A DNA stretch of 64,000 nucleotides from Schmidtea polychroa (lineage: Eukaryota). Positions 29,401-32,400 of this stretch are shown piece by piece (the first letter of the stretch is position 1; every line of letters begins with the position of its first letter). The notes beneath the pieces were generated by a model. It did no database searches, was not told the DNA's origin, and saw nothing but the letters and a program-made list of their open reading frames with translations. The DNA is taken from assembly GCA_044892525.1 (NCBI GenBank), contig CM097885.1, positions 1,924,001-1,988,000 on the forward strand, read 5' to 3'. The translations under genes and the position numbers were made by a program.

Positions 29401-32400
29401 TATGTCTATCAAACCCAGAAAGAAATTAATTTTTAATTAGAATACTCCCCGTCTATCTAACTGCTCTCTACGTCGTGTTGTAGGGAAATTAAATTATCAC
29501 TGCTAAGGAGGGGGGAAGGGGGTCCAATAAGTATCTCTCTTATCTTATCATGATTCGAAGATCTCAGCCGAGAAATTAAAGTGATCTATAGATATCAGAC
29601 AAAATGATTTTTCTTACGTTTCATCAAGTTTGCTTTAAAATTTATAAACTTTATTATTATTTATATTATTATTATTATTATTATTATTATTATTATTATT
29701 ATTATTATTATTATTATTATTATTATTATTATTATTATTATTATTATTATTATTATTATTGTTATTAAGTAATGGTGTAAAATATTTTTGTCGGATGTCT
29801 CACTTGAATAAAATAAACAGTACAAGCTTTGTGATACCCAGTGCAAATCCCAATAGTAGACTAGTTTCGAGTTTTTGGCTCTCATCAGTACTATGCAGGA
29901 GACGCGAAGATTTCTTTTCATGCCAGGTAAGTATGCAATATTGCTGATTCAACTCTACTGCATACTTTACCTGCTACACTGGAAATCACATCGCTTGCAA
30001 AATAGCTTGGTCACAGAAAAAATCTGTAAACTTGTAAACATGGCGTATGAAAAATCATAATCACCTCTGCGGACTAAAAATTTAGTCGATACACAGAAAC
30101 TGTTTACACAAAGAATTTTTTTTAAAAAATAATATTATTATCCTCGTAAAAAAGCAAATATATTGCGGTCCACAATGAGTTTTGGGTTGATAAACACTGA
30201 TTTAAACAATCCATTTTTTTTGTGTATTTTTAAACTAAATCTCATTTCCAACCAATTTTCAAATAAGGAATACATAATTGGTATTGTTGGTTTTGCTTAA
30301 ATATTCTGTATTAAATAAAAAAAGCAAATAAAAACAAGAAAATTAAACATTTTATACCAAACTAAAATTTTGGAAAAGTAGTGAAAGATATTGTAGCGAT
30401 GGTTCACACGAACAAAACAAAAAATTGTTCAATTTAATTTAGAAAGAGCTTCAGTGACTTGGAAAGTGAAGTACAGAAGCGAATTAAACGAAATCTTATC
30501 TTGAAAATAATGTGATGCAATCAGAGGGGAAGTTGCTATTGCGACTGAATAAAAATTACAATTAGTTTCTGTGTATCGACTAATTTTTAGTCCGCAGAGG
30601 TGATTATGATTTTTCATACGCCATGTTTACAAGTTTACAGATTTTTTCTGTGACCAAGCTATTTTGCAAGCGATGTGATTTCCAGTGTACCGGGGAAAGT
30701 ATGCAATAGAGTTGAATCAACAATATTGCATACTTACCTGGCGCGAAGAGAAATCTTCGCGTCTCCTGCATAGTACTGATGAGAGCCAAAAGCTCGAAAC
30801 TAGTCTACTATTGGGATTTGCACTGGGTATCACAAAGCTTGTACTATTTATTTTATTATTGTTATTATTATAAAATTAAATGATAGTATAAGCCTTTTGC
30901 TGCAAAGTATATATTGAATAAAATGAAATAATTTTCGATTATAAAAATAATCAATAAATTGATAAAGATTGTTTTGTATTAGAAAATATTTATAATTAAA
31001 AAAAAGATATGTTAATAGGGCTCGTAGGACAAATTTCATCTATTGTTAGTAGCTGCATTCCCATTTTTCGAAAAATCTTGATTAAAATACGGGAAGAAGG
31101 GAGCTTTTAATGACTGCCAAAAAGCCGCACTTGTATTAATGAAAAAATAGTAATCTTTACCTTTCAAATTAAATGAAACTCAACAGAAATACCCTTAGTA
31201 ACAATGATTATAACATTATCAGTTGTAATGTTTCTACTGATAAAATATGTACTCAGGAAAACCGGTATATGGCTTGATGAAAATTGTTTCGTGAGAAAAG
31301 GGTTTTGTAATTATGCAAAAATGCTTTTAGGATCCTTAGGACAAGGGAAAATATTTATCCTCAGATATATAAGCATATTACCTACTGTAAGTTTCACTTT
31401 AATCCTCCAAATTTCCGGTTCCAAAAAAAGAATAATGTCAATGTTCAGATCTGTTTGATGTGCTACTGATCCATTTTAATTTGATCTTCACCCGAGGAAA
31501 TGGTTCATTGATATCGTAATCGAGCACAGAAATCATACTGAATCAGATATGTAATTGATATTGATTTATATTACTCATCCGCCAATGATTTATTTATTGT
31601 TATACAATCATTCTGAAATGTTACACTCAACTAAATTATATATCATTCTTGTATCATATCATAATTGTAAGGGGGTCTCATTTTACCTTCATTCTTTGAA
31701 TTCCTGTGTAGTGAATTCATTCAACTTTTTCATTGCAAACTATGGAACTCATCAATTGGTTAACGGTTTCTATTGGAAATGAATTAAAAGGTTGCCCAAA
31801 TTGAAGTATTAAGATTGACCTCATTTTCTTCGAATTTTTGTTTTATAATATTTTGTCTTACTCTTGAGAATCTGTAAAATGTATACAAATGGATCGTGTT
31901 TCGGTAAAATAAAATCTCATAAATTAAATTTGTATTTGAAACTAAAAGATTAACTGTTAATAGGCTTCTTACTGTTATGGGAATTATTTTGATAAGGCTT
32001 ACAGTGGCTCATAATCAGGATGAATTTTATAGGAGATAAGTTAAGTATGTGGGAGACAAGTTACCCAAGGTGAGAGAGAAAAGGAGGGTTAGAAAAAAAT
32101 GCAGGCTGGTACAAGACCAGTAAATTACCGAAAGGGGAAACATAATTTGTATACATGATAACCATGAAATACTCAATGTTAATATTCGTATTATTTGTCC
32201 CAAGTAAGCAGAATCTGTTTAACTGATAGCAATGAACATGATCTGTCTAGCCTGCGGTCTCTGGTGAATTGTCAGCAGTCAAATGTAATTCAGACGTTCA
32301 AAAAATGATGAAATTTCCTGTACTGCCAGGGGGTGACAGAAATATTGTAATTGAGATGACGCTCCATTAACGGTGACTGCTCCTAGAATGGTATCGAGCG

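Follow-up and report, generated by a model that had tools for sequence, protein, structure and literature searches.

Results

The host gene and the inverted unit

We analysed a stretch of 64,000 nucleotides of the Schmidtea polychroa genome (contig CM097885.1), hereafter the window, in whose positions all features are given. Within an intron of a GPCR gene it contains two back-to-back arms around a spacer, each arm with a hammerhead motif (Table 1). Positions 1-83 and 84-259 of Pfam 7tm_1 are contiguous over the exon junction of this gene, and the spliced product is identical to Schmidtea mediterranea GCR074 at 351 of 360 residues (97.5%) without gaps. The two plus-strand exons enclose both arms, and the intronic position given in the first-pass annotation is thereby confirmed. 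The intact sense-strand ribozyme lies 2,165 nt upstream of the 3' splice site.

Public contigs from four of 15 runs (X1, X5, X7 and X9; one per study, four studies) were compared with positions 30102-33300; X1 may be the window's own source. In X7, whose status as an RNA run is a guess, one contig begins to match the window at 33021, and the 405 nt that precede this point in the contig do not align, consistent with a spliced message. The intron alleles of X7 differ, and the insertion may be missing from this run, as from X5. A search for homologues of GPCR exon 2 among longer proteins, a length class too long for it, returned nothing.

Table 1. Positions, strands and supporting evidence for the GPCR gene, the inverted unit and its immediate surroundings
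Feature	Positions	Strand	Basis
GPCR coding exon 1	17484..17851	+	Pfam 7tm_1, splice model
GPCR host intron, 15,171 nt, GT..AG	17852..33022	+	splice model
(TTA)n microsatellite, likely insertion target	29651..29767	.	TRF, 39 copies
Candidate target-site duplication, left copy (15-nt exact direct repeat)	29753..29767	+	direct-repeat search
39-nt tail, left copy only	29768..29806	-	arm alignment stops at 29807
Left copy of repeat, 3' end outward	29807..30108	-	alignment and family consensus
Putative left type I hammerhead, helix II reduced to 3 bp, antisense to GPCR	29853..29894	-	descriptor, folding, Rfam HH9
Spacer, 455 nt, 26% GC, near-single-copy, likely captured host DNA	30109..30563	.	depth; no protein match
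Right copy of repeat, 3' end outward, without tail	30564..30857	+	arm alignment, contig depth
Internal hairpin, common to both arms	30690..30741	+	-26.2 kcal/mol, z -7.9, 0/200 shuffles
Putative intact type I hammerhead, sense to GPCR; cut predicted after C30805	30770..30811	+	descriptor, folding, Rfam HH9
Candidate target-site duplication, right copy; overlaps last 5 nt of right arm	30853..30867	+	direct-repeat search
Second high-copy repeat, end abutting insertion; outside unit	30874..30952	-	depth, loose ends at 30949-30952
GPCR coding exon 2	33023..33737	+	Pfam 7tm_1, splice model

The arms pair over 295 aligned columns (29807-30101 with 30564-30857) with 11 differences and are 96.3% complementary. 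This alignment and the descriptor scan described below bear out the earlier description of inverted arms of about 290 bp with one hammerhead each. The extent first proposed for the element (29808..30855) holds in that an element is present there; its true start is 29768 rather than 29808, because the 39-nt tail sits on the left arm. Positions 30102-30108 agree with the upstream loose-end consensus of the repeat family in the public contigs. CpG decay was considered as the source of the arm differences and dropped, the sites being too few.

Several other features were recorded. The same intron contains a palindromic microsatellite at 17871-18017, in which (TTA)32 runs directly into (TAA)17 only 20 nt past the splice donor, and a further high-copy repeat at 32563-32883 with a depth of up to about 340x that of the unique flank in X1. 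The second high-copy repeat of Table 1, at whose end the unit has apparently inserted, has an 80% copy within the window at 52050-52114; TTA-rich tracts adjoin both copies, which are weakly tail-like (3 of 500 shuffles were as good). Elsewhere, a single frame at 6783-7499 joins a Rab/Ras-like domain to a piece of a proteasome subunit, and a second rhodopsin-family GPCR, apparently of a single exon, lies at 9990-11165 on the minus strand. A hAT transposase C-terminal dimerisation domain was found at 42355-42780 (E 6e-10). Fragments of an integrase core (43154-43489, E 4e-5) and of a protein-primed DNA polymerase B (62451-62768, E 9e-4), both below the Pfam cut-offs, are possibly Polinton remnants.

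An open frame that begins in a (TAA)n tract at 51385-51633 on the plus strand resembles the C-terminal half of a GIY-YIG endonuclease from a PLE. Among named Atlas clusters the nearest is GIY-YIG, with a score of 0.92 and 15% of members, and by eye the frame is similar to the Perere_Smed row in the PMC8557442 supplement. It gave no Pfam match, and a search among longer proteins returned no homologue.

Two type I hammerhead motifs

Judged by their sequence, both sites have the core, the helices I, II and III and the NUH cut site of a type I hammerhead. The right motif has helix I at 30770-30775/30806-30811, a core that starts at 30776, a helix II of 4 bp and a palindromic helix III. The left core, which starts at 29888 on the minus strand, is identical; its helix II has lost the top pair through a change at 29872 and retains 3 bp, so that only the right motif passes a strict 6-bp/4-bp descriptor. 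The right motif is therefore intact and on the sense strand of the GPCR gene, as first reported. A loose descriptor run over both strands of the 64 kb returned exactly two sites, both in the arms, where 0.017 are expected per shuffled window, and none of 300 shuffled windows contained two. Both sites match Rfam HH9 with E values of 0.003 and 0.085 (23.9 and 19.3 bits, below the gathering score of 52); at gathering thresholds the whole window gave no Rfam match. The motif pattern was absent from the metagenome and viral contigs searched, where no autonomous partner with the terminal sequence of the repeat turned up either, and the window holds no second sense-strand hammerhead.

The motifs had been linked to minimal hammerheads. 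In the classification of Cervera and de la Pena, which separates the 'canonical' animal type I form from the minimal form of PLEs, a helix I of 6 bp and a helix II of 4 bp indicate the canonical form instead. The suggestion that cleavage proceeds in dimers fares better: helix III is palindromic with a predicted loop of 2 nt, and a lone copy is likely to be weak and to need a dimer partner. The predicted gain from dimerization is small (-27.6 versus -24.8 kcal/mol for two monomers). Single minimal hammerheads of PLEs had no detectable cleavage (PMC4209133). Axolotl hammerheads are weak as monomers, and a coral retrozyme monomer cleaves efficiently (PMC7229834); the planarian motif may therefore retain some activity as a monomer.

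An abundant repeat around a near-single-copy spacer

Contig depth differed sharply between the arms and the spacer. Relative to a unique-flank contig, the arm bins reached 3,858-16,436x in X1 and 6,974-17,148x in X5, figures that are summed contig depth, inflated by short overlapping contigs, and not copy numbers. In both runs the depth climbs toward the hammerhead end, as expected from 5' truncation of copies. The spacer bins between 30209 and 30529 stood at 1.7-2.9x the unique flank in X1 and 0.9-1.9x in X5, and the first bin, 30102-30208, which is AT-rich and overlaps the end of the left copy, at 21.5x and 7.1x, respectively. X7 does not cover the spacer and is uninformative either way. Over 30924-33300 the X1 flank contigs have depths of 205 and 162, roughly half those of the spacer contigs (367-450), and may mark a haplotype-specific region, in which case the X1 ratios are about twofold too high. 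With arms thousands-fold deep and a spacer near single-copy, it follows that the arm is a very abundant repeat, of which the spacer does not form the body.

One X9 contig (record 25) reads 30693-30844, then 96 unaligned nt, then 30564-30636. This is a head-to-tail arrangement with a monomer of about 377 nt, a length taken from this single contig of a run whose RNA status is guessed, and tandem DNA or circular RNA would both produce it. The left copy including its tail measures 341 nt. At about 377 nt (one contig), 38% GC and with a canonical type I hammerhead, the repeat has the size and composition of retrozymes, and it shares their multi-copy nature: in X1 and X5, which come from separate studies, its summed depth is thousands of times that of unique flank. 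We infer a repeat of about 377 nt that is either derived from a pLTR and non-autonomous or is a non-LTR retrozyme, and the unit as a whole is probably a retrozyme derivative. The Penelope/retrozyme lineage first proposed is supported.

Marks of a probable single insertion event

The unit probably arose by one insertion of two non-autonomous copies with captured host DNA between them, likely through Penelope-type retrotransposition. Two unrelated, opposite insertions about 455 bp apart in native intron, perhaps followed by gene conversion, would be the other way to obtain such a pair, and this we regard as unlikely. Both arms have C at the position of 30729, where T accounts for 98.2% (X1), 99.7% (X5) and 98.8% (X7) of the depth; a variant found in less than 2% of the family depth is thus shared by the two arms, which speaks against separate origins, as do their 5' ends, placed within 7 nt of one another on the family sequence. 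The 11 arm differences and the near-single-copy depth of the spacer, which native intron would also have, point the other way. At 5,000-16,000 copies, and for a genome of 700-840 Mb, chance alone is expected to yield 4-46 head-to-head pairs of this type genome-wide.

The ends of the unit bear on this choice. The whole unit is bracketed by a 15-nt direct repeat, whose 13-nt core is confined in the 64 kb, on both strands, to the two unit ends; the window contains 30 (TTA)10+ tracts. The candidate duplication is of low complexity, with information that amounts essentially to one G, and a 3-nt ATT duplication bordering only the right arm, in line with an independent insertion, fits as well. Contig joints at 30845-30881, where the empty site would appear, were left out of the comparison. 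The repeats stand head-to-head, as in PLE-mobilised insertions, and the 39-nt tail is confined to the left copy, just as PLE insertions carry a tail at one end only (PMC8557442; PMC3846280). A solo copy of the tail occurs at 58219-58260 (42 nt, 88% identical, E 3e-9). It lies beside a (TTA)33 tract with a short inverted piece before it (58198-58260) and may represent a minimal insertion from this family. Measured from the ATG of the core, the tail of the unit ends at 118 nt and the predicted cut falls at 27 nt. This PAc-like register is weak evidence, because the ATG is inherent to the core when its variable base is U and the 39-codon frame at this ATG is open in 284 of 5,000 shuffles.

The origin of the spacer bears on both readings. 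A 972-nt contig of X5 carries spacer positions 30124-30406 after 686 nt that are unaligned in the listed piece, and X1 and X5 share three spacer substitutions relative to the window. At several sites the X1 spacer contigs depart from the window sequence, against 1 of 1,676 letters in the adjacent X1 flank, which speaks against native intron. The unaligned 686 nt and the shared substitutions fit a separate source locus for the spacer; the 686 nt could also be orthologous flank. Among the pieces listed from the four runs no contig bridges a spacer-arm junction, and the spacer contigs of X1 and X5 end at 30563, where the right arm starts, as independent insertion into native intron would predict.

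If a single insertion is the correct reading, a Penelope GIY-YIG/RT enzyme would have nicked both strands at the end of the (TTA)n tract. Each nicked end would then have primed reverse transcription near the 3' end of the element, one at the tail and the other 39 nt earlier, and template switching would have linked the 5' ends of the two cDNAs through about 455 nt of host sequence unrelated to the element, leaving a target duplication of 13-15 nt. The PAc enzyme cleaves and extends both strands in vitro (PMC11167929).

The first-pass annotation had instead proposed an internally deleted PLE. That the unit is a 5'-truncated or internally deleted autonomous PLE, with the spacer as its decayed body, is very unlikely. 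Truncated PLEs typically show an inverted pLTR anatomy, truncated elements are represented less often by their bodies than by their ends, and one minus-strand spacer frame has only two stops in 140 codons. The spacer nevertheless has approximately the depth of a single locus, 0.9-2.9x the unique flank versus about 3,900-17,000x for the arms. A six-frame Pfam search of the spacer gave no convincing match (best E 0.17, in one frame), phmmer at E 0.001 among 1.84 billion proteins found nothing for its most open frame, and the family's own upstream sequence is unlike the spacer at the right junction. Autonomous PLEs carry an RT and GIY-YIG frame between their pLTRs; here a near-single-copy spacer of 455 nt without a protein match takes that place, and by this measure the unit is not an autonomous PLE.

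Fate of the unit in the GPCR pre-mRNA

Transcription of the GPCR gene produces the left arm before the right arm, which would therefore zip into a duplex of about 290 bp before its hammerhead can fold. The full unit has a predicted fold of -582 kcal/mol. Predicted pairing of helix I is about 0 in the full unit; when the left arm is left out, five of the six pairs reach 0.93-0.99. In addition, 95-100% of the right-arm bases are predicted to pair with the left arm at all five chain lengths tested. These predictions support the earlier proposal that the fold-back silences the ribozyme. The companion proposal, that the intron could be cut co-transcriptionally if the fold-back fails, fares worse: given the predicted fold-back and the probable weakness of a lone copy with a 2-nt helix III loop, no second sense hammerhead, and a complementary arm transcribed first, cutting of the GPCR intron by the hammerhead is unlikely. 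Since the duplex should form before the hammerhead and a dimer partner is likely needed, the insertion is most likely a tolerated passenger and probably neutral. The paired runs could be edited or diced, and any such processing would be a by-product.

Host co-option of the fold-back or ribozyme for GPCR regulation, by conditional intron cleavage, editing or small RNAs, is highly improbable in our judgement. The intact ribozyme does lie on the sense strand ahead of the 3' splice site, two predicted paired runs measure 108 and 101 nt, and planarians possess ADARs and a dsRNA response (PMC8797187). Against these stand the thousands of copies of which this is one, a possible absence of the insertion from X5, and the 42-44% of Xenopus retrozyme copies that are intronic anyway (10.64898/2026.07.22.740005). 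The mRNA data of PMC8797187, moreover, place only one of the putative edited sites within transcripts that have homology to known transposons.

An assembly artefact, a collapsed or chimeric fold-back, has a negligible chance of accounting for the locus: high-copy repeats next to microsatellites assemble poorly and no contig among the pieces listed bridges the arm-spacer junctions, yet 11 arm differences, a one-sided tail, a flanking duplication and PAc-like end points are not what an artefact would be expected to leave.

Discussion

This locus is a lead to a hammerhead-bearing repeat family that is abundant in a model animal for regeneration, and one element shows both retrozyme-like and Penelope-like marks. 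Other animals already provide published cases of hammerhead pairs on opposite strands, of one-sided tails and of DNA caught between pLTRs. Neither a planarian retrozyme nor this repeat family was found in the open-access literature searched, including the available part of PMC6431247; the family may be catalogued in Repbase or Dfam, or in the supplements of PMC7229834 or PMC4209133. A broader proposal, which we put forward as speculation and consider doubtful, is that the repeat represents an undescribed planarian retrozyme family with thousands of copies, a circulating RNA of about 377 nt, Penelope two-strand priming, routine capture of host DNA and silenced sense copies favoured in introns. 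If this were true, an invertebrate retrozyme would be tied directly to PLE insertion chemistry, and ribozyme self-silencing would be a selected genome-wide pattern. A 2026 preprint argues that retrozymes derive from pLTRs, a link described there as untested outside vertebrates (10.64898/2026.07.22.740005).

Comparison with known systems

The closest parallels in architecture are Penelope and Poseidon insertions. In Adineta vaga, solo pLTRs with duplications are reported to enclose captured non-coding sequence, head-to-head being the commonest form (PMC3846280), and PLEs elsewhere show inverted 5'-truncated copies, one-sided tails of 30-40 bp and a microsatellite bias (PMC8557442). The planarian unit has the same head-to-head repeats, one-sided tail, AT-rich or microsatellite target and unrelated sequence between the copies. 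Its candidate duplication is 13-15 nt, whereas those of the Penelope and Poseidon insertions are 8-10 bp; unlike them it lacks an RT/GIY-YIG frame, and its repeat reaches a depth of thousands-fold in contrast to their low copy number.

The Poseidon element PAc of Anolis provides a more specific likeness. Its reverse transcription starts 111-118 nt into the ORF and its cut lies 26 nt after the start codon (PMC11167929). The planarian unit shares with it a core ATG, a copy end about 118 nt past that ATG, an optional tail and an ATT-rich target. PAc is autonomous, which the planarian unit is not, and the likeness is one of positions.

Among flatworms, PLE remnants of Schistosoma mansoni carry dual hammerheads 100-700 bp apart on opposite strands (PMC4209133), the arrangement seen here. 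The S. mansoni motifs are minimal, with a helix II of 7-8 bp, whereas in the planarian unit helix I has 6 bp, helix II has 4 bp and about 890 bp separate the cores. The sole Schmidtea motif in the searched part of the PMC4209133 supplement differs in sequence from the arm motif.

The repeat itself most resembles the metazoan non-LTR retrozymes, described as non-coding repeats of 150-450 nt and less than 50% GC with a canonical type I hammerhead (PMC7229834). At about 377 nt and 38% GC, and with a head-to-tail junction in one contig, the planarian repeat is like these elements and those of the 2026 preprint (10.64898/2026.07.22.740005), and dispersed, often intronic monomers are common to both. 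Unlike the tandem retrozymes, the planarian locus, known here from its sequence, is inverted.
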